A stretch of 64,000 bases of DNA. It comes from Patescibacteria group bacterium (GTDB taxonomy: Bacteria; Patescibacteriota; Minisyncoccia; Phycocordibacterales; Zambryskibacteraceae). Positions 2,500 to 43,679 of the stretch are shown piece after piece. The stretch is from assembly GCA_004322205.1 (NCBI GenBank), contig SCSN01000008.1:18370-82369 (forward strand), given 5' to 3'. The notes beneath the pieces are model-generated. The model worked only from the letters and a program-made list of their open reading frames with translations, did no database searches and was not told the origin of the DNA. Within the stretch, counting starts at the first letter, position 1, and each line of letters begins with the position of its first letter. The position numbers were made by a program, and so were the translations under genes.

Positions 2500-4350
2500 C
2501 TAAACGCCAAGCACTACAGGGATGACGATAGGGCGCTTGGCGGTTTTTTGGAAGAGAAAACGGCTGACCGCGTCGTTGACGTTTGCTTTGACGAAGTCGA
2601 AGTTAATGGGGTTCATGCCGAAGGTAGCTTTCTCGATCGTTCGCTTAATAATGAGCCGGGTTTGCGAAAGCAGTTCCTGTGATTCGCGCAGATAGACAAA
2701 GCCGCGCGAAATTATATCCGGAGATTTCTTGAGCTTGCCGGTTTTGATGTCAATGGTTGCGACAATGACGACAAAGCCGTCCTCGGCAAGCATCTTGCGG
2801 TCTCGCATCACCACTTCTTGGACGTTGCCGATGGAAAAACCGTCAACCAGGACAGGGCTAGAGGGCGCCGATTCTTTGAGTTTGACGAGTCTTTTACCCT
2901 CATCTTGAATCTCGATGACCATGCCGTTGTCGGGGACGATGATATTCTCCGGTGTTATTCCGAGAGAGAGCGCCACTTCTTCGTGAACGCGGAGCATGTA
3001 GTGGGTGCCGTGGATGGGGATAAAGAAACGCGGATGAATTTTTCTGTGAAGCCATTCGAGCTCGCCGCGGTTGCCGTGCCCGGTTGAGTGAATATAGACG
3101 TCGGAGGTGCGGTAGTGGATGATCTTGGCCCCTTGCCGAGCAAGGTTGTCTTTGAGTTTCTGCACCGCCCTTTCATTGCCGGGAATGATGGAGGAAGAAA
3201 GAAGAACCGTATCATTTTTAGTGATCTTGACGTACTTGTGGCTTTTGAGAGACATTCGCATCAGGGCGGCGAATTCGTCGCCTTGGGCGCCGGTGGCGAG
3301 AATAATGATTTTGTCTGGAGGGTATCTCTCCATCACTTCTGGCATAATAATGGTGTCAGGTTTAACTTTGAGTCTGCCGACCTTAGCGGCGATTTCAACG
3401 TTGGTTTTCATGCTGCGCCCTTCAACCACCACCTTTTTGTCGTAGCGCTCGGCGCTCTCGATAATTGCAACGACGCGCTCAATTTGTGAGGCGAAGGTGC
3501 CGATGATAAGGCGGCGCTTGGTGGTGCGAATGATTTCGTCCAAATTTTTGTGGACGAGACTCTCCGGAGTGGACCAGCCGGGATTTTCAACATTAGTTGA
3601 GTCCATCATCAGGAGAAGAACATTTGCATTTTCAAAAATTGAATACTCTTCCTCCTCTGCTTCCGTTGGCACACCATCGACGTGATCAAGCTTGATGTCG
3701 CCGGGATTAACGATCCAGCCTTGGGGAGTCTCAATGATAATGCCCATCGATTCAGGGATGGTATGGGTAACGGCAAAAAAGCGCACCTTGAGATTGCCGA
3801 CGCTGATATGGTCCTCTTTTTCAACCATCCGCAGATCAAGAGCGGGAAGATGAGGAAATTCCTCCTGGCGCTTGCGAATCATGATGGAAGTGAGAAAGCG
3901 GGTGTAGATGGGAGGGTTGCCGATCCGGTTCATTATGTAAGGGATAGCGCCGATATGGTCGAGGTGTCCGTGGGTGATGATGAGGGCGCGCACTTTGTCT
4001 TTGCGCTCTTCGAGGTATTTGGTGTTGGGCAGGATATAGTCAATGCCCGGCGTGTCTTCCTCGCGGAACTGAAAACCGGCATCAAGGACAATAATGTCGT
4101 TGCCGTACTCGACTACCGTCATATTCTTGCCGATTTCCTCAACTCCGCCCAGGGGGATGATGCGGATACTGTCGCCAGCCGGAGGAATCTTTTCTTCTTC
4201 CGGTCGTGTTGCGATCTGCCTCTGCGTCCCACGCATCGGACGGCGCGGACGCCGGAGCATTCCCATGCCGCGCACTCGAAGGTTTGGAGCTTGGCGGGGG
4301 CGCAGCCGGGTGATGTGTTGAGAGAAAGAATCTTGGTGTTGTGGGTTCAT
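2500..4350 (-). CDS. rnj: ribonuclease J
   Basis: Metallo-beta-lactamase HxHxDH motif (ITHGHLDHIG) with beta-CASP and RNase J C-terminal regions. Also carries a basic N-terminal extension of roughly 60 aa. Confidence 0.9.
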   Translation of the reverse strand: MNPQHQDSFSQHITRLRPRQAPNLRVRGMGMLRRPRRPMRGTQRQIATRPEEEKIPPAGDSIRIIPLGGVEEIGKNMTVVEYGNDIIVLDAGFQFREEDTPGIDYILPNTKYLEERKDKVRALIITHGHLDHIGAIPYIMNRIGNPPIYTRFLTSIMIRKRQEEFPHLPALDLRMVEKEDHISVGNLKVRFFAVTHTIPESMGIIIETPQGWIVNPGDIKLDHVDGVPTEAEEEEYSIFENANVLLLMMDSTNVENPGWSTPESLVHKNLDEIIRTTKRRLIIGTFASQIERVVAIIESAERYDKKVVVEGRSMKTNVEIAAKVGRLKVKPDTIIMPEVMERYPPDKIIILATGAQGDEFAALMRMSLKSHKYVKITKNDTVLLSSSIIPGNERAVQKLKDNLARQGAKIIHYRTSDVYIHSTGHGNRGELEWLHRKIHPRFFIPIHGTHYMLRVHEEVALSLGITPENIIVPDNGMVIEIQDEGKRLVKLKESAPSSPVLVDGFSIGNVQEVVMRDRKMLAEDGFVVIVATIDIKTGKLKKSPDIISRGFVYLRESQELLSQTRLIIKRTIEKATFGMNPINFDFVKANVNDAVSRFLFQKTAKRPIVIPVVLGV

Positions 4351-6500: not shown

Positions 6501-6529
6501 TTGACAAAAAGTTTAAGTATGATATAATC
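6501..6529 (+). promoter_or_regulatory. consensus sigma70-type promoter (TTGACA-17-TATAAT)
   Basis: TTGACA at 6501-6506, a 17-nt spacer, TATAAT at 6524-6529. It drives the GC-rich ORF at 6596. Confidence 0.5.
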
Positions 6530-6595
6530 GAATAAGATAGTATTTAGAGCATCAGTTTCACACCCACCACACCCACGTTGTGGGAAGGAGAATTT

Positions 6596-6922
6596 ATGAG
6601 TAGCGAAGCGGTTTCTGTGCCCGCACCGGGGCGCAATGAGCTCTTCGAGACCATCGAGGTCTTGGAAAGGGCCGTCCGCCACTCCGAGATTTCCATGGTG
6701 GAGCTCTCGGAGCGTCTCAGGGACTGTGTGGCGGAGGCCTATCGCCGCCACGACCGAGCGTGCTGGACAAAGAAGTTCGCCGAGCGCCGCTTCTGGGAGC
6801 GGCGAGCGATCCGTCTAGCGACCGTCACGCGAGATGAGATCAGGTCGCAGGTCCGGCAAGCCCTCGATGCTCGTCGACGTAAGAAAACGAAGGAAGGCCG
6901 CAGCGTTCAGGCCACAGCCTGA
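6596..6922 (+). CDS. hypothetical protein (GC-rich ORFan with canonical SD)
   Basis: Start placed at the ATG at 6596, preceded by AAGGAG 7 nt upstream. GC content is visibly higher than flanking genes. I see no recognisable domain. Confidence 0.5.
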   Translation: MSSEAVSVPAPGRNELFETIEVLERAVRHSEISMVELSERLRDCVAEAYRRHDRACWTKKFAERRFWERRAIRLATVTRDEIRSQVRQALDARRRKKTKEGRSVQATA

Positions 6923-6993
6923 ACTTGTCGGTCACGGGCCCCGCTCGCGCGTACGCAAGTACATGCGCGAACGGAGCTCTTTGTTTTTCGTTA

Positions 6994-24144: not shown

Positions 24145-24248
24145 AGCCTAAAAATAGGAGTAGATTTGGGCACATAATTCTATTAACAAACTATAAGTTT
24201 GGGTGTATGATGTTAAGTAGGTAGAACCTTGAGAAAGCTACTTGTATT

Positions 24249-24299
24249 TATGTACAGCTTTGAGAGTGGTTCCTCGAACTTCTTTCCAAGCTGTACATA
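24249..24299. promoter_or_regulatory. nested palindrome (12-bp arms TATGTACAGCTT/AAGCTGTACATA enclosing GTTCCTCGAAC), candidate operator
   Basis: Perfect 12-bp inverted arms separated by 27 bp that themselves contain the GTTC-CTC-GAAC palindrome. Lies about 70 nt upstream of the GC-rich ORF at 24367. Confidence 0.35.
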
Positions 24300-24366
24300 A
24301 CAGGCCCGCTCTAGGTCCCGGCATTTGGTCGGAGCTTACGGGTGAGCCACAAACAAGGAGAAAGTC

Positions 24367-24984
24367 ATGACCGCCAAGGCCGTGACAACCGCGCAGTTAG
24401 AGCAGATCCGCAAGATGGCGAAGGAGAAGGGCGTCAGCCGCGACCAGTTCCAGCTGGGGCTCGACAACGGAATGTTCGCACGCACCCTCGACGAGCTCAT
24501 CGTCGGCAAGGTGACGGAAACACCAACGGGCCTCTTCCGCCTCGCCGTGGACTGGGGTCGGACGACCGAGGAGATGGTCCGGGCGTGCCAGTACGACTGT
24601 GCCAACCCGGATATCACCGAGGAACACTTCCCCCGGCCGCGCACGAGCGGCGTCGTGAAGGGCGACTACAAGCTCTTTCACTTCAACCGCAATATCTCAT
24701 CGGACCAGGCTGTCCGCGAGATACGCGCCGAGGGCTTCGAGCTTACCGGAGCGCACGAGATCCTCGTCTTCAGGGAGAAGTTCCCCGAGGAGCAGCGGAA
24801 GTTCACCATCGTTGGCCTCGGCGATCCCCTCTGGCGGCGGGACCGGTACGGCTACCGGCACGTGGTTGTGCTCCGCAGGCACGAGGCGCGCCGCTCCGCT
24901 GACCTGACCCTCTGGGAGGTCGTCTGGCCTCCGCTCTACCGCTTCCTCGCCCGTCGCCTGCCTGCCGGACAGGCAGGCAAGTAG
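24367..24984 (+). CDS. hypothetical protein (GC-rich ORFan with canonical SD)
   Basis: 205 aa, AAGGAG 5 nt upstream, very GC-rich by eye, followed by its own terminator. I see no recognisable domain. Confidence 0.5.
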   Translation: MTAKAVTTAQLEQIRKMAKEKGVSRDQFQLGLDNGMFARTLDELIVGKVTETPTGLFRLAVDWGRTTEEMVRACQYDCANPDITEEHFPRPRTSGVVKGDYKLFHFNRNISSDQAVREIRAEGFELTGAHEILVFREKFPEEQRKFTIVGLGDPLWRRDRYGYRHVVVLRRHEARRSADLTLWEVVWPPLYRFLARRLPAGQAGK

Positions 24985-25030
24985 GACCTGGGTCCTAGGA
25001 AAACGGAGCTTCTGGAATTCTAGACCCTCG

Positions 25031-25062
25031 GCCCGCGTGTCTAACGATGCGCGGGCTTTTGC
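25031..25062 (+). terminator. rho-independent terminator
   Basis: GCCCGCG-loop-CGCGGGC followed by TTTTGCT. Confidence 0.6.
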
Positions 25063-25877: not shown

Positions 25878-25886
25878 TGGTATAAT
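25878..25886 (+). promoter_or_regulatory. extended -10 (TGGTATAAT)
   Basis: TGnTATAAT 15 nt upstream of the ATG at 25901. Confidence 0.4.
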
Positions 25887-25900
25887 TGAAAGCACGCCGT

Positions 25901-27304
25901 ATGACCAATACTCGCCAACGCGCCGTGGTGAAACTTGCGCCTTTGTTTCTGTTCATTCTCTCTCTTCTCTTTCTGCCGTTTGTTTCTTCTGCCCAGACCC
26001 TGACAGAGCAGCGGATTGCCGACCAAGAAACGAAACTCCGCGCCGAATACGACGCTCTCCAGAAAGAAATCGAGAAGTGGCAGGGGATTCTCACTGAAAC
26101 ACAGAAAAAGGCAAGCACCTTGCAAGGTGATATTTCCTTTTTGAACGCCAAAATCAAGGAGGCGGAGCTTACCATCAAAGCAAAAAACATTGCCATCGGG
26201 CAACTGGCTAAGGAAATCGGAGTCAAGACCAAAAAAATTGGTGAACTTGAGGGGAAGCTCGCGCGGGGCAGGCAGTCCCTCGCTGAACTCATCCGCAAGA
26301 CCAATGAACTCGATTCATATTCGCTGCCCGAAGCAATTCTTACGAATAAAGATCTTTCCGAGTTCTTTAAAGATTTTGATTCATATTTGTCGATTAAGAG
26401 TGCTCTGCAAGAGCATTTTGCTGAAGTTCGGCAAGTTAAAAAACAGACCGAAGCGGAACGGGAGCAACTTGACGTCAAAAAAAATCAGGAGACTGACGCC
26501 AAGTATGTAGTGGAGAGCCGCAAGAAAGTCATCGGTCAAAGCCAGAAAGAAAAAACGCAGCTGCTTACCGTAACAAAGCAAGAAGAAAAAACCTATCAGA
26601 CGGTTTTGGCTGAACGACAGAAGCGGGCGGCGCAAATCCGAGCGGCGCTCTTCCGTCTTCGCGACACTGAAGGCATTCCTTTCGGCAAAGCTCTCGAGTA
26701 TGCAGGCCTTGCTTCCTCAAAAACAGGTGTTCGGCCGGCTCTTATTCTCGCCATTCTTTCGCAGGAGTCCGACTTAGGAAAAAACCAGGGCTCCTGCATT
26801 CTCTCAAGTCTTACGACTGGCGATGGAGTAGGGAAGAATACGGGCACATTTTTTGAAAAAGTTATGAAAGCGCCGCGCGACACGGAGCCGTTTGAGAACA
26901 TTACCAAACAGCTGGGGAGGGAATGGACCTTGACGCCAGTTTCTTGTCCGCCCGGGACGACATATTCCACGAGCCGCGGCTACGGCGGCGGCATGGGCCC
27001 CTCGCAGTTCATCCCCTCCACCTGGGAGCTCTTCAAGGAGCGCATTGGGAGTATTATCGGACTCGGTGCTGACAGCCTTGATCCTTGGAATCCGGAGCAT
27101 TCGTTCGTGGCGACGGCAATTTATCTCTCTGATTTGGGGGCGGCTGGCGACGGGTATTCGGCGGAGCGCAATGCGGCCTGCAAATATTATTCCGGCGCCT
27201 CTTGCCGAGCGGGGCGCAAGCCACCCAATGTTTTTTACGGCGATTCAGTGATGCAGAAAGCGGAGGAGATACAAAGTAATATCGACTTTTTGAAGGGGGT
27301 TTAA
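25901..27304 (+). CDS. secreted coiled-coil protein with C-terminal lytic transglycosylase (MltB-like) domain
   Basis: Signal peptide, long heptad-rich region, then LAILSQESDLG (catalytic Glu) and GGGMGPSQFIPSTW, which is characteristic of MltB-family transglycosylases. Confidence 0.6.
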   Translation: MTNTRQRAVVKLAPLFLFILSLLFLPFVSSAQTLTEQRIADQETKLRAEYDALQKEIEKWQGILTETQKKASTLQGDISFLNAKIKEAELTIKAKNIAIGQLAKEIGVKTKKIGELEGKLARGRQSLAELIRKTNELDSYSLPEAILTNKDLSEFFKDFDSYLSIKSALQEHFAEVRQVKKQTEAEREQLDVKKNQETDAKYVVESRKKVIGQSQKEKTQLLTVTKQEEKTYQTVLAERQKRAAQIRAALFRLRDTEGIPFGKALEYAGLASSKTGVRPALILAILSQESDLGKNQGSCILSSLTTGDGVGKNTGTFFEKVMKAPRDTEPFENITKQLGREWTLTPVSCPPGTTYSTSRGYGGGMGPSQFIPSTWELFKERIGSIIGLGADSLDPWNPEHSFVATAIYLSDLGAAGDGYSAERNAACKYYSGASCRAGRKPPNVFYGDSVMQKAEEIQSNIDFLKGV

Positions 27305-27337
27305 AAGAGCTTCTTAGCTAGTTAGCTTATTAGAAAC

Positions 27338-27379
27338 TGCACACCAAAAAATGGCTCAAAAGAGCCATTTTTTGGTGTG
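27338..27379. terminator. bidirectional intrinsic terminator (19-bp perfect arms)
   Basis: GCACACCAAAAAATGGCTC-AAAA-GAGCCATTTTTTGGTGTGC. Confidence 0.7.
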
Positions 27380-27403
27380 CAGGCAAAGAAAATGCAAAAA
27401 TTA

Positions 27404-27431
27404 TTGACAGAAAACACTGATATGCTATAAT
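27404..27431 (+). promoter_or_regulatory. consensus promoter TTGACA-16-TATAAT
   Basis: TTGACA at 27404-27409 and TATAAT at 27426-27431. No ORF follows, only a GC-rich structured region. Confidence 0.5.
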
Positions 27432-27437
27432 TAGTTG

Positions 27438-27795
27438 GAGATCAGTTCGGGGAGGTAAGTAAGCCGCAAGGCCGAAATTCCCCTTCGAGCGTAAGTCCTT
27501 AGGTTGCTCTATTCGTCGGAGCGCCGGGCAGCAAGGTGGGGTCCTCTCTTCTAACGGTGCGTTTGTGTAGGAGATGGTAAGTTATCGGCCTGACGCGGCA
27601 GCCGGTTCGGCGCCCGCGCCCAGTGCGTCCAGCCTAACAAAGAGGGCGGGACGGATGAACGGAGCCCCCGCGGGGCACATCCTCTGGAGTGTATCGTTCC
27701 ACTCCCCGGTAACTAGCCAAGTCTAGACTCTCCCACGCAAACGTGCTGGGGCCTCGTCGCAGTCGTAGTTGACCGCGGCGGGGCCTCTTTGTTTT
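27438..27795 (+). ncRNA. candidate structured ncRNA of about 360 nt (GC-rich; identity unresolved)
   Basis: Sits between a consensus promoter and a GC hairpin plus T-tract (GGGGCCTC...CTTTGTTTTTATT). Contains many GNRA-closed hairpins such as GCC-GCAA-GGC. No credible ORF in any frame. Confidence 0.35.
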
Positions 27796-27873
27796 TATTA
27801 TATTCTGTATTGTGCTTTACTGTCACTGTACTAGAGTACTAGAAATTTAATATCTTAATATCCCAGCAGTAGT

Positions 27874-27901
27874 CTTAGTATATCATATATGATGCATTAA
27901 G
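27874..27901. repeat. palindrome family member 1 (CTTAGTATATCATATATGATGCATTAAG, imperfect)
   Basis: Shares the ATCATATATGAT core with the copies at 28518 and 32649. Confidence 0.5.
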
Positions 27902-28069
27902 AAACTCGCAAGAAACTGGCTGTTAGGCGAGTTTTTAGCTTTTGGTTCCAAATTGAAACTATTGAAACTACTGCCTCTTGCTTCCATGACTTATGTTTTC
28001 GCCGCGTCTCCGCTTTTTACACCTTCTCCTTGACAGGCGTCTTTGGGTTGCTATGGTTGGACTAGAGGC

Positions 28070-28416
28070 TCTTGTGCGCCGTGTGAGCAGAAGGGTCAGT
28101 GACTGCGGACGGAGAACTTCAGCGCGTCTCTCCTGGGCACCGGCGCACACAAAAAGACTGGGCAACAGCAGTCTAAGAGCTCATAACCCCGATGGTTGTG
28201 GTGTTCTCGCACCCGTTGTCCAGCCACAATCGTGCTTGTGTCTCGCACACTTTCTTGGGCGAAAGACAATGCGACTCTTGCTTCGGCGAGGGGGGAATGT
28301 AGGTATGGACGGAGCAGTTCCAGCCCAGCGTGGCGCTCGCCACGCACTCCAGGCTTACAAAACCAGCACAGGCATGGACCCCCACGCACGCCACCGTGGG
28401 GGTCTGTCTTTTTCTG
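28070..28416 (+). ncRNA. second candidate GC-rich non-coding transcript (about 350 nt)
   Basis: Weak promoter (TTGACA-16-TATGGT at 28030-28063) and a strong terminator (GACCCCCACG...CGTGGGGGTC plus TGTCTTTTTCTG, 28378-28416). The only ORFs are Arg/Ser-rich overlapping pairs on both strands, typical of non-coding GC-rich DNA. Confidence 0.25.
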
Positions 28417-28517
28417 TCGGGGTGCAGGGCTTTCGGCAAGGTTTGAACGTAAAGATCGAAGCGCGAAAATTTCGCGGGAAACACAGAAAAAGCAAGAAAC
28501 CATGAAACTCTCCTTTC

Positions 28518-28543
28518 TTAGTCTATCATATATGATAGACTAA
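28518..28543. repeat. palindrome family member 2 (TTAGTCTATCATATATGATAGACTAA, perfect 26 bp)
   Basis: Perfect palindrome about 100 nt upstream of rpmE. Confidence 0.55.
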
Positions 28544-28650
28544 GCGTGCAAAAGACAAGAAAGTTTAAGAAAACTGTTGGATTCGCGGCGATAGGTGTAG
28601 GTCAAGTGCCACCCTTGCTTTTTATTTTAAGATTGTTATATTCAGCTCGC

Positions 28651-28869
28651 ATGAAAAAAGACATCCATCCTCAATATTTTGATAAGGCAAATGTCGTCTG
28701 CGCCTGCGGCAATACTTTTACCATTGGCTCGACAAAAGAACGAATCGAGGTGGAAATCTGCAGCGCCTGCCACCCCTTTTACACCGGCACCGAGAAAATC
28801 ATTGACTCCGCCGGACGAGTTGAGAAATTCAAATCCAGGCGCGCCAAAGCGGCAAAGAGCAAGAAATAA
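28651..28869 (+). CDS. rpmE: ribosomal protein L31
   Basis: MKKDIHPQY...CACG...[10 protein letters not shown] zinc-ribbon L31 pattern. Start trimmed to the ATG at 28651, 8 nt after an extended -10 (TGTTATATT). Confidence 0.9.
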
Positions 28870-39298: not shown

Positions 39299-41671
39299 AT
39301 GCTAGTTTCCTACAAGTGGTTACAGGGATATTTTGATGAGCCGCTTCCTCCTGCAGAAAAGCTGGTAGAGCTTTTAACTAGATACGCCTTTGAAGTTGAG
39401 TCTGTTGAAAAAAGAGGAGAGGATTCTGTTTTGTACGTCAAAGTTCTGCCTGACAGAGCGCATGATTGCCTCTCTCACATTGGGATTGCAAAAGAAATCT
39501 CAACCATCTCTCGCCTGCCGCTCAAAACCGGCTTGGTTTCAGCGCGCCAACTCTCCGCGCCGGAATCAAATTTGCTGAAGGCAGAGTCAGAAGATCCTGC
39601 TTTGTGTCCTCGCTTCAGTGCGCTGGTCATAGAAAATGTTGAGGTCAAAGAAAGCCCGGGCTGGCTCAAGGATTTGCTTGCCGCAATCGGGCAAAAGTCC
39701 GTCAATAATATCGTTGACGTTACAAACTACTGCATGTTTGCCTACAACCAGCCGCTTCATGCCTACGATTTGGGCAAGCTCTCCTCTGGCGAAGAGGGCT
39801 ATAAACTTACTGCCAGAACCGCCGGCAAAAAGATGAAATTTCTCGCGCTGGATGATAAAGAGCACAATCTTGTTGAAACCGATTTGATTATAGCCGACGG
39901 AGTATCTGGTGAGACGCTCGGAATTGCCGGTATAAAAGGCGGCAAGGCGTTTCAAATAGAGGAGAACACGAAACGCATTGCTCTAGAGGCGGCAAATTTT
40001 AACCCTGTTTCAATCAGCAAAACTTCAAGACGCCTTTCTCTTCTGACTGACGCCTCAAGACGCTTTGAAAACGGAATTTCCCCGAGCCTGACGCTCATTG
40101 GGCTTTCCGAAGCTTCGAGACTGATTCTTGAGATTGCCGGGGGGGAGAAGATACGTGTTGAGGGACTTTGCGACTTTTATCCGAGGAGGGCCAATCCTTA
40201 CAAACTGGGAGTATCTCTTTCTGAAGTAAGAAATTGGCTCGGCCTTGATATAACTTCGGCTGAAATTGAGGAAATTCTCAATCGCCGCGGATTTGAGTGG
40301 GGGCTTGTCAGTCCTCGTGAAGAAATTGTTGCGCGCGCCAAAGAGCTCATCGGCGTCCCGTACAAATACGGCTCCAGTGTTCTTTACGACGCGCCGAAAA
40401 CATTTGATTGTTCCTCGTTTACAGCGTACTTGTGCGCGCAGGCGGGTGCCTCCATTCCGAGGATGACGATAGACCAGTATGTTTGGATGGAGTCGGTTGA
40501 AGATGGAGAAGCACAGCCAGGCGATTTTGTTTTTTCAAATACACATGACTTAAAAAGAGTGATACGGACTGAAAGTGTCGAATTTATGGCGGGCACAAAA
40601 GTGCCCGACGGGGTTGATCACGTTGGTGTTCTTCTCGGCGAAGGCAAGGTCGTTCACGCCACTGAAACTGCGGGAAAGGTTATAAAAGAGGAGCTGGCGG
40701 GAGCCCCGCGCTTTCAAGATTTACGCGGCTTCAGGCGAGCTGTGAGCGACGGGAAGAGATACGTTGTAACAGTTCCCGATGAGCGGCTTGATTTGAGAAT
40801 AAAGGAGGATTTGATTGAAGAAATCGGGCGGCTCTACGGTTATGACAGAATCGGCTCGAGGACCATATCTGGTTTTCCACAAGAGCCGGAGATCAACAAG
40901 ACCGCTTATTACTGTGATAGAATCCGCGACTTACTCCGCGCGAAAGGGTGCTCGGAAGTTATCACCTACGCCCTGCGCAGTGATGGGGAAGTTGAACTTG
41001 AGAATCCCACAGCCTCCGACAAGCGTTTCCTGCGCCGCAATCTCTCCGATGCTTTGAGCGAATCGCTTGAAATTAATGTCCGCAATGCCGATTTGCTAGG
41101 TCTCGACGAAATCAAAATTTTCGAAATCGGCAATGTTTTTCCAAAAGAAGGCGAGCGCCTATCCATTGCGCTAGGTGTGAAGAACGGCAGGGGTTCGGCA
41201 AAAAAGGAGACAGAAGAAGTCAAAGAAATTGTCAGCATGCTCTCTGCCGAGTTGGGGGTCGAATTTCCTCCACCAAACGGAGCAGTATATGAGGTGAATT
41301 TAGGGAAAATCTTGGACGGATTGCCCGCGCCGGAGAAACCGCTCTCTTACGAGAAGCCGCTCTCTTTTAGTTACAAGAAGTTCTCGCCTTATCCTTTCGT
41401 CGTTCGTGACATTGCTGTTTTGAGTAGCGAAGAACCAAAGAAGGTGGAAGAATTTGTTGTAAATGGTGCTAGAGAAGCCATCAAGGGCTCAAAGATTGAT
41501 TTGGTGAACAGTCGGATATTCGACGTCTTCGAGCCTAAGGAGGGAGGTAAGTCAACGGCCGTCCGCCTGGTGTTTCAATCGTCGGAGCGAACGCTTACAG
41601 ACAGTGAAGTGAACGAGATTATGAAGAAAGTGACAGAAGATGTTTCAGAAAAAGGTTGGCAGGTAAGATAA
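39299..41671 (+). CDS. pheT: phenylalanine--tRNA ligase beta subunit with an inserted NlpC/P60-like domain
   Basis: N-terminal MLVSYKWLQ, B3/4, B5 and C-terminal anticodon-binding regions. An NlpC/P60 signature (GVPYKYG, FDCSSF, QPGDFVF, HVGVLLGEGKVVHA) lies in-frame inside the B5 region. Confidence 0.9.
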   Translation: MLVSYKWLQGYFDEPLPPAEKLVELLTRYAFEVESVEKRGEDSVLYVKVLPDRAHDCLSHIGIAKEISTISRLPLKTGLVSARQLSAPESNLLKAESEDPALCPRFSALVIENVEVKESPGWLKDLLAAIGQKSVNNIVDVTNYCMFAYNQPLHAYDLGKLSSGEEGYKLTARTAGKKMKFLALDDKEHNLVETDLIIADGVSGETLGIAGIKGGKAFQIEENTKRIALEAANFNPVSISKTSRRLSLLTDASRRFENGISPSLTLIGLSEASRLILEIAGGEKIRVEGLCDFYPRRANPYKLGVSLSEVRNWLGLDITSAEIEEILNRRGFEWGLVSPREEIVARAKELIGVPYKYGSSVLYDAPKTFDCSSFTAYLCAQAGASIPRMTIDQYVWMESVEDGEAQPGDFVFSNTHDLKRVIRTESVEFMAGTKVPDGVDHVGVLLGEGKVVHATETAGKVIKEELAGAPRFQDLRGFRRAVSDGKRYVVTVPDERLDLRIKEDLIEEIGRLYGYDRIGSRTISGFPQEPEINKTAYYCDRIRDLLRAKGCSEVITYALRSDGEVELENPTASDKRFLRRNLSDALSESLEINVRNADLLGLDEIKIFEIGNVFPKEGERLSIALGVKNGRGSAKKETEEVKEIVSMLSAELGVEFPPPNGAVYEVNLGKILDGLPAPEKPLSYEKPLSFSYKKFSPYPFVVRDIAVLSSEEPKKVEEFVVNGAREAIKGSKIDLVNSRIFDVFEPKEGGKSTAVRLVFQSSERTLTDSEVNEIMKKVTEDVSEKGWQVR

Positions 41672-43533: not shown

Positions 43534-43679
43534 CTCTCCCCCAGGGTGGAGTGTTGTATGATGTGCCTATCTTTTACGACTATATCATAAAGCTAACCTT
43601 TAGTCCAATAGTCCAAATTCTAAAGGGAGTCCTTGGAATTTCTTCGTCATTTACTCTCGTTTAAAGTATAGCAAAGCAA

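Follow-up and report, generated by a model that had tools for sequence, protein, structure and literature searches.

What fills the gap between the gene of a cwlO-like peptidoglycan hydrolase and rpmE in a genome of the candidate phyla radiation (CPR)? The genomes of CPR/Patescibacteria are smaller than 1 Mb and contain very little non-coding DNA, and to our knowledge hardly anything has been learnt about RNAs with regulatory or accessory roles in them. We analyzed this gap in a 64-kb stretch of contig SCSN01000008.1 from a Patescibacteria group bacterium (the window below, meaning the whole stretch), in which the flanking proteins indicate Patescibacteria of the Paceibacteria/Zambryskibacteria type (NCBI locus tags EPN83_01530 and EPN83_01540). 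The element found there was designated RNA1. The most fitting description is that of a new cargo, so far an orphan, in a type of accessory RNA cassette newly recognised in Paceibacteria. According to the explanation that we favour, the cassette would be a self-contained unit lying between the two genes and built of an insulating hairpin, a consensus sigma-70 promoter, a structured non-coding RNA, which is RNA1, and a strong intrinsic terminator.

The sigma-70 promoter TTGACA-16-TATAAT (27404-27431, forward strand) matches the consensus in 12 of 12 positions and has an extended -10 TG at 27423-27424, which confirms the perfect promoter described in an earlier note on this DNA. Only three 12/12 matches occur in the window, that of RNA1 among them, each located upstream of a GC-rich island; the RNA1 region as a whole contains six promoter-like sites, compared with 1.3 +/- 1.0 in shuffled sequences. 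A site with 11/12 matches is found on the opposite strand (27826-27797). The predicted primary transcript of approximately 359 nt (27438..27796, forward strand), the ends of which were inferred from the promoter and the terminator, is non-coding and has a GC content of 61-63%, versus 49% window-wide. It ends with an intrinsic terminator (27748..27796, forward strand), where a 13-bp GC stem (27748-27760/27775-27787) encloses a small inner hairpin and is followed by UUUGUUUUU (27788-27796), in agreement with the terminal GC hairpin and T-tract reported earlier. This terminator was overlooked by a simple terminator scan because its loop exceeds 8 nt, and its stem is specific to the forward strand, since it includes three G.U pairs. 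The two attributes of an independent sigma-70 unit, hexamers at a spacing of 16-18 nt and an intrinsic terminator, are both present in the sequence. As judged from sequence, RNA1 is an independent and complete transcription unit, GC-rich and non-coding, with its own consensus promoter and terminator; its transcription is predicted, and it is presumably expressed.

The coding potential of this transcript is low. The longest open reading frame (ORF) within RNA1 has 50 codons, lacks a ribosome-binding site and encodes a low-complexity, non-hydrophobic peptide, and the period-3 signal in GC content is 0.9, compared with 4.8-43 in coding GC-rich islands of the same window and 10-13 in the neighbouring genes, so that the earlier description of about 360 nt without a credible ORF holds. 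A long ORF under an alternative genetic code, which the earlier note had named as an argument against a non-coding RNA, was looked for by six-frame translation; no ORF was rescued in RNA1, and stop codons other than UGA interrupt all frames. The same data bear on the proposal that RNA1 is an mRNA for a small protein or a type I toxin. Such an mRNA would account for the Shine-Dalgarno (SD)-like motif near the 5' end of RNA1 and for the ORFs of 14-50 codons, and the opposite-strand promoter-like site could yield an antisense RNA overlapping the 3' end, as in some type I toxin-antitoxin systems. It is nevertheless very improbable: no start codon is found at SD distance, where the motif is followed by UAAGUAAG, the 50-codon ORF and the period-3 signal have the properties given above, no alternative code helps, and no consistent small ORF recurs across the class of cassette RNAs (hereafter cargos) found in related loci.

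The earlier note considered RNase P RNA, transfer-messenger RNA (tmRNA) and a large signal recognition particle (SRP) RNA as candidates and proposed a scan against the Rfam models for these and for 6S RNA. Rfam 15 was applied at gathering thresholds to the window and at E<=10 to a 601-nt segment and to the 365-nt RNA alone, the latter run being sensitive enough to list matches of about 10 bits. At gathering thresholds, only two tRNAs were found in the 64-kb window, and ARAGORN likewise reported these two tRNAs and no tmRNA. RNA1 matches no relevant Rfam family even at E<=10, either in the 601-nt segment or as the RNA alone, and the search of the region and of 24 related loci returned nothing but tRNAs and chance miRNA-like matches on the hairpin that precedes the promoter; none of the cargo RNAs in these 24 loci belongs to an Rfam family.

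The individual candidates fare no better. For RNase P RNA, no match to the type A or B models (RF00010/RF00011) was obtained at gathering thresholds or at E<=10, nor for RNA2, a second unit of the same gap described below. The P4 helix of RNase P RNA is formed by conserved regions CR-I (GAGGAAAGUCC) and CR-IV (ACAGAA-N-GGCUUA); by manual inspection, RNA1 has a CR-I-like GAGCGUAAGUCC at 27487-27498 with no GGCUU/ACAGAA partner, and RNA2 contains GGCUUA with no AAGUCC-type partner. RNase P RNA is essential and hence expected in every related genome; among 125 gap-bounded loci, considering syntenic positions only, the element is absent (gap <100 nt) in approximately half and is 110-620 nt long in the remainder. 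For tmRNA, whose hallmarks are a tRNA-like domain (paired 5' and 3' ends, T-arm and CCA end) and a tag reading frame, both ARAGORN and Rfam (RF00023) were negative, and the 3' end of RNA1 is an intrinsic terminator. SRP RNA is characterised by domain IV with its symmetric and asymmetric loops and GNAR tetraloop and, in the large form, by an Alu domain. Neither the small (RF00169) nor the large (RF01854) model scores at E<=10, and the resemblance of the 5' hairpin to an SRP Alu domain, which had been suggested earlier, gains no model support. 6S RNA has the shape of a rod, about 180 nt long, whose large central bubble mimics an open promoter; RNA1, at 359 nt, is predicted in both minimum free energy (MFE) and centroid structures to form a 5' hairpin and a multi-branched domain rather than a rod, and does not match RF00013. 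Finally, group I introns reside inside a host gene (tRNA, rRNA or protein) and share a conserved P3-P9 core. They are common in tRNA genes of Patescibacteria (PMC13011429); RNA1 has its own promoter and terminator, is not flanked by tRNA halves and has no match to Intron_gpI at E<=10.

An essential housekeeping RNA was ruled out because about half of the relatives have no syntenic element and the length of the others varies from 110 to 620 nt. More broadly, one could suppose that RNA1 is a highly diverged RNase P RNA, tmRNA, SRP RNA or 6S RNA overlooked by standard models. Its size would fit, no rnpB, ssrA or ffs was found elsewhere in the 64-kb window, and by eye a weak ordered likeness to E. 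coli M1 RNA (GAGCGUAAGUCC, AACAAAGAGGGCGG and AGCCAAGUCUAG) is visible. CPR RNase P RNAs are indeed diverged and can escape default Rfam thresholds, yet they score with RF00010 at lowered thresholds and keep their core (PMC8172020). For RNA1 none of the models of the four families reaches E<=10, not even with the 365-nt RNA by itself as query, ARAGORN is negative, the P4 strand lacks its 3' partner GGCUU and the ACAGAA-N-GGCUUA motif, the MFE fold is not the 6S rod, the syntenic elements share no core, and the gap in the 24 related loci also gives no Rfam match, which makes a diverged housekeeping RNA extremely improbable. Of the two possibilities left by the earlier note, a divergent housekeeping RNA or an undescribed one, the second is the one supported here.

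Is RNA1 then part of a recurrent arrangement? The local gene order (FAD-linked oxidase, bL25, cwlO-like/SLT peptidoglycan hydrolase at 25886-27304, the gap, bL31/rpmE at 28651-28869, RF1, S2 and EF-Ts) was compared with 164 related loci that were fetched via the flanking genes, the best homologs of the flanking proteins having only 74-76% identity. The order is conserved in these loci, and the distance between the hydrolase gene and rpmE varies from 13 nt to 3.6 kb. In approximately 45 loci, the gap contains a near-consensus promoter TTGACA-16-TAtAaT, followed by a GC-rich body without an ORF or codon periodicity, a terminator and the rpmE promoter. These bodies, or cargos, are 110-620 nt long, exceed the genome by 10-20 GC points and are mostly unrelated to each other; in one subgroup (L016, L018, L022, L039, L045 and L062) the flanks align at 75-93% and the bodies are unalignable. 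Among approximately 140 loci, 21 of 38 GC islands fall within this gap, and none of the 21 has codon periodicity. In short-gap relatives, the rpmE promoter TTGCAA-17-TGTTATATT stands alone directly 3' of the cwlO-like gene, and because cargo-free relatives hold the rpmE promoter alone, the whole unit was interpreted as an insertion. In other relatives (L162, L014/29/43 and the L052 group) the gap is occupied by protein genes. By comparison with these loci, the unit is an accessory insertion in a hotspot. Separately, two cassette-free loci, L008 and L097, have in the hydrolase-rpmE gap a common short element CATTACGGAGCGYGAC...GCGCGAGTATAGC, which may be a small rpmE-associated hairpin motif.

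The cassette head consists of a perfect 21-bp hairpin CTGCACACCAAAAAATGGCTC/GAGCCATTTTTTGGTGTGCAG with an A-tract and a T-tract (27337..27382). The hairpin can, as predicted from its symmetric tracts, terminate transcription in both directions, which would insulate the unit from the upstream cwlO-like gene. At first look it was taken for the terminator of the hydrolase gene; its recurrence before cassette promoters assigns it to the cassette. Hairpins of the form CCAAAAAA-N-TTTTTTGG occur once in the window (none in shuffled sequences), and L001, L021 and L012 have one each; in every case the cassette promoter follows at a distance of 25-35 nt. The slot in L001 and L021 is the same as in the window, and that in L012 is different, between the FAD-oxidase and L25 genes. 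An alignment of the four heads has 72% column identity up to the -10 hexamer and diverges completely after it, the cargos being unrelated to RNA1. We defined the cassette family from these four genomes, with provisional boundaries, as a CCAAAAAA...TTTTTTGG hairpin, 25-35 nt, the promoter TTGACA-16-TGnTATAAT, an ORF-less GC-rich body and a terminator; the RNA1 unit has all of these parts.

The position of the unit suggests a possible action in cis on rpmE, as a long attenuator or leader or as a transcriptional insulator, where read-through or promoter activity would tune L31 synthesis. Consistent with this, rpmE is always the gene immediately downstream of the unit, in many relatives the cargo terminator has its U-tract directly against the -35 box of the rpmE promoter, and an SD-like motif with a 4-codon mini-ORF in a hairpin loop (L039, L122, L028 and L062) resembles ribosome-sensing leaders. 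In the window, however, rpmE has its own promoter TTGCTT-16-TGTTATATT (28615..28642, forward strand), and RNA1 stops 850 nt short of the gene, with the RNA2 unit and this promoter between them; for this reason, RNA1 is not the rpmE leader. The start codon of rpmE at 28651 is about 8 nt past the -10 hexamer, and the mRNA is probably leaderless. Moreover, sensor domains are normally conserved, yet the body is the variable part of the cassette, a homologous cassette is found upstream of the L25 gene in L012, and about half of the relatives express rpmE without such an element. A cis-acting role is thus improbable, and we consider that RNA1 probably does not regulate rpmE in cis. The L31 protein of the window is of the CxC...CxxC (zinc-binding) form.

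Evidence that cassette cargos can be functional comes from the relatives. The conservation of cargos was judged by comparing BLAST matches with the identity at four-fold synonymous sites. The cargo of L001 in the first slot and that of L012 in the second are homologous over approximately 420 nt (nhmmer E 1e-34 to 1e-37; 80% column identity), whereas identity at four-fold synonymous sites in the neighbouring gene has fallen to the random level between these genomes (0.24 versus 0.28 expected). These cargos, family X, are located at 7589-8085 in L001 and at 4413-5040 in L012 (identical to 2413-3040 in L094 and 1314-1941 in L095) and are approximately 450-620 nt long; the core is duplicated in tandem within the L012 copy. 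In the 161-nt core, 8 of 41 predicted pairs are compensatory between L001 and L012 and none is broken. By these comparisons family X is a new large structured RNA family with clear covariation, absent from Rfam and conserved between two species. Similarly, the cargos of L108 and L117 share 90% identity across 176 nt, with all 12 variable pairs still pairing, at a synonymous identity of 0.32-0.34. Genomes that are closer by the flanking gene (L108/L109 and L117/L028) carry different bodies, which indicates that cargos are exchanged rather than merely drifting. Taken together, the alignments clearly point to purifying and structural selection on some of the other cargos and to their mobility.

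A smaller motif is also found in differing cargos: a covarying hairpin of 3-4 bp with the loop GU(N2-3)CCCG, followed 6-36 nt on by ACAGGGR (L001 7702-7734; L012 4519-4552 and 4679-4712; L021 7562-7589; L029 7586-7611; L043 7639-7664). The CCC of the loop could pair with the downstream GGG as a pseudoknot. The window lacks this motif. The analysis of loop motifs across cargos was unremarkable, and k-mer enrichment over all cargos revealed no shared motif other than SD-like words.

The predicted fold of RNA1 begins with a 5' hairpin domain (27445..27490, forward strand), on which the MFE and centroid structures agree: a stem 27445-27452/27483-27490 is interrupted by internal loops UAAGUAA and CGAAAUU and capped by GCC-GCAA-GGC (27463-27472). 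It is followed by a central multi-branched domain (27556..27747, forward strand), closed in the prediction by a long-range helix 27556-27568/27735-27747 of 13 bp and extended by 27570-27574/27729-27733. The four G.U pairs of the closing helix make it specific to the forward strand, consistent with the better z-score of that strand when the terminator is left out (-2.2 versus -0.8 for the reverse strand). With the terminator included, RNA1 scores -3.6 on the forward and -2.7 on the reverse strand against dinucleotide shuffles. The mean fold z-scores of the cargo class are -2.9 and -2.1, respectively. The many GNRA-capped hairpins mentioned in the earlier note were not recovered: a single GNRA hairpin with at least three closing pairs, the one at 27463-27472, is present, and shuffled sequences give as many (P=0.47).

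The SD-like words point to the 5' end. In RNA1, GGGGAGGU (27449..27456, forward strand, with GGAGGU at 27451-27456) lies about 12-19 nt into the predicted transcript; the sequence after it is UAAGUAAG, with no start codon. Of 31 distinct cargo RNAs, 18 have GGAGG or AGGAG within their first 100 nt, compared with 7.0 +/- 2.3 in shuffled sequences (maximum 13); the motif is often AAAGGAGGA, often in a hairpin opposite CCUCC, and no consistent start codon or small ORF follows it in this class of 31 cargos. A 5' stabiliser of this type, STAB-SD, was reportedly described by Agaisse and Lereclus in 1996 for the Bacillus thuringiensis cry3A mRNA. The principle reviewed in PMC4113751 is that an SD close to the 5' end, at which no translation starts, is bound by 30S subunits and in this way blocks RNase J. 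RNA1 contains such a non-initiating SD-like motif near its 5' end, complementary to the 3' end of 16S rRNA, and the window also contains a gene for an RNase J homolog (2500-4350). By analogy, GGAGGU may be a putative STAB-SD-type 5' stabiliser of RNA1. As a separate observation, the 5' regions of the L039, L122, L028 and L062 cargos, about 70-110 nt past the -10 hexamer, contain a conserved module AGGAG-N9-AUG, where a covarying hairpin of 4-5 bp presents the AUG in its 7-nt loop (AAAUGGA); this AUG opens, in two genomes, a 4-codon ORF (MDPR-stop/MDPC-stop) resembling a leader peptide.

These features suggest how the unit may work. It appears to be built for stable accumulation of an RNA, combining a promoter of the top class in the window, a 5' stabiliser, a GC-rich multi-helix body and a 3' hairpin. 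GGAGGU would recruit 30S subunits and, together with the 5' hairpin, would block 5'-to-3' decay by RNase J, as proposed for STAB-SD; RNA1 itself would act in trans, for instance by sequestering a protein in the manner of a decoy or sponge, or as a guide or base-pairing RNA. The interchangeability of cargos among lineages suggests accessory, possibly conflict-related functions. A function of RNA1 may be argued by analogy and from anatomy, and on balance we lean, with modest confidence, towards an expressed, stable, trans-acting accessory structured RNA.

Several observations weigh against this interpretation. Searches with nhmmer and blastn revealed no homolog of RNA1 in the 164 related loci or in phage and plasmid collections, all matches being chance ones of seed length, and two pattern scans of viral contigs found none either. 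Lack of conservation in related genomes, which the earlier note had named as an argument against a functional RNA, is formally what was observed for RNA1's own sequence in the 164 loci, whereas its slot and head are conserved; by sequence comparison RNA1 is a singleton cargo with the cassette head and grammar. The CCCGG...CAGGGR motif, common to five cargos, is absent from the whole window, RNA1 included. Covariance models of the 5' module of the L108 group (R1) and of the family X core (R2) have no match in RNA1 or RNA2, R2 giving only generic hairpins of at most 6.5 bits in 27300-28700. When the terminator is omitted, the fold z-score is a modest -2.2 on the forward strand versus -0.8 on the reverse, and RNA1 is not enriched in stable tetraloops (GNRA and UNCG). 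The GGAGG is partly base-paired in the MFE fold, which would compete with 30S binding. Lastly, the high GC content could reflect foreign origin rather than structural selection, as the window also contains three GC-rich protein cassettes. A side observation concerns a 22-nt exact match to RNA1 positions 201-222 (AACAAAGAGGGCGGGACGGATG) on the minus strand of three IMG/VR contigs (L186 7710-7731, L187 1312-1333 and L189 830-851), which is probably due to chance, since the similarity extends no further.

The singleton status, the modest structural z-score and the three GC-rich orphan protein cassettes also fit a non-functional RNA1, that is, a foreign GC-rich fragment or a decayed cargo remnant in a recombination hotspot, transcribed because it landed behind a resident promoter. 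The occupation of the slot by protein genes in some genomes and the clustering of short perfect tandem duplications at cassettes are consistent with such a passenger. Random bacterial DNA is mostly coding, and recently decayed or fragmentary coding DNA would retain a period-3 signal, unlike RNA1. In addition, the perfect promoter, the strong terminator and the SD-like motif at the 5' end have been kept in a lineage with very short intergenic spacers, high GC content persists in non-coding DNA, and other cargos of the same cassette type are clearly under purifying and structural selection. A mere passenger is therefore rather unlikely, although it deserves to be kept in mind, and we retain the trans-acting accessory RNA as the preferred interpretation. 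A wider proposal is offered tentatively, as a possibility that we hold well short of probable: Paceibacteria may carry undescribed mobile, insulated RNA-expression cassettes with a conserved head, an SD-like 5' stabiliser, a strong terminator and swappable cargos of 110-620 nt, exchanged between genomes and slots and at least in part under selection. RNA1 and RNA2 would be two new cargo types, and the diversity and turnover of cargos would suggest that they serve in conflict or in the interaction with a host, as decoys or guides for example.

The remainder of the gap and its neighbourhood have a similar organisation. RNA2 (28030..28417, forward strand) is a unit unrelated to RNA1, with the promoter TTGACA-16-TATGGT and TG (28030-28057), a GC-rich ORF-less body of approximately 350 nt and a terminator (28374-28407) followed by a T-run. 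Its period-3 signal is 1.2 and its fold z-score is -1.8 on the forward strand versus -0.1 on the reverse; no Rfam match was found, and nhmmer and blastn searches of the 164 related loci, phages and plasmids gave only chance matches of seed length. A 170-residue ORF overlapping it (27993-28505) was considered spurious, being rich in Arg and Leu and without a Pfam match. The RNA2 unit is bracketed by a 28-nt perfect palindrome CTTAGTCTATCATATATGATAGACTAAG at 28516-28544 and its degenerate copy at 27873-27902, a pair that may represent a recombination or insertion boundary or an operator. A 29-nt sequence resembling CRISPR-DR2 was detected at 27931-27959 on the reverse strand (23.8 bits, E=0.064). 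It is present only once, and neither an array nor cas genes were seen in its vicinity; with no repeats around this lone 29-mer, a CRISPR or TIGR-like array was dismissed.

Five of the six perfect two-copy tandem duplications of 8-9 nt in the 64 kb adjoin GC-rich cassettes (27828-27843, 27847-27862, 27952-27970, 6559-6576 and 43601-43616) and may be footprints of insertion or excision. Three GC-rich protein cassettes follow the same promoter/terminator grammar, each with a strong promoter and a GC terminator, and encode small proteins of 108 (6501-6985, forward strand), 205 (24183-25060, forward strand) and 180 residues (44477-43690, reverse strand). They have 63-66% GC, with up to 0.87 at third codon positions, and their products have no match in Pfam, PHROG or NCBIfam. 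The gene for the 205-residue protein is inserted between those for the FAD-oxidase and L25; none of the related loci contains it, and only 9 distant homologs of its product exist among 5.8 billion proteins. Further downstream, the phenylalanyl-tRNA synthetase beta chain (39299-41671, forward strand) has an apparent NlpC/P60 peptidase domain (residues 352-469) between B3_4 and B5.

The case is that of an RNA gene, predicted to be strongly promoted, in a hotspot beside core genes of translation. Comparison with related loci reveals a conserved head joined to exchangeable RNA cargos, at least one new RNA family that is large and clearly covarying, and an SD-like motif that recurs without a translational role. 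Provided that the cassettes are genuine functional modules, minimal symbionts would have in them a new route to acquire and exchange RNA-based functions, and the cassettes would also be a ready source of uncharacterised structured RNAs. Should RNA1 prove a mere transcribed passenger, it would still mark a recombination hotspot, useful for the study of CPR genome plasticity.

Comparison with known systems places RNA1 between several of them. The diverged CPR RNase P RNAs (PMC8172020) resemble it in phylum, size range and occurrence as a GC-rich island in an AT-richer genome, but they keep their core and an RF00010 score, whereas RNA1 has no score at E<=10, lacks P4, CR-I and CR-IV, and belongs to an element that is dispensable in relatives. 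OLE, ROOL, GOLLD and raiA, from the Breaker-lab screens of GC-rich intergenic regions, are likewise long GC-rich ORF-less intergenic islands with a complex multi-helix fold; their models do not match RNA1, and they were defined by conservation and covariation across many genomes, whereas RNA1 is a singleton so far. CsrB/RsmZ and 6S RNA are also stand-alone, terminator-ended, multi-hairpin RNAs, strongly expressed in the known cases and drifting fast in length and sequence between species. In contrast to CsrB/RsmZ, GGA motifs are not enriched in the loops of RNA1 (8 observed versus about 8 expected), and in contrast to 6S RNA it has neither a rod with a central bubble nor an Rfam match. With STAB-SD of cry3A, RNA1 shares an SD-like GAAAGGAGG/GGAGG near the 5' end without a translation start, in a window that encodes an RNase J homolog, and several related cargos carry the exact AAAGGAGGA; the cry3A element, however, stabilises a downstream coding mRNA, whereas nothing is translated in RNA1, where the motif is partly paired in the predicted fold. 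The architecture of the unit is that of phage morons and other accessory promoter-cargo-terminator cassettes, which also have their own promoter and terminator, lie between conserved genes, deviate in composition, are patchily distributed and carry a swappable cargo. The RNA1 unit differs from morons in its location on a CPR chromosome without prophage context, where the annotated neighbours showed neither an integrase nor phage genes, in its cargo, a non-coding structured RNA, and in a conserved hairpin-plus-promoter head that is joined to different cargos.

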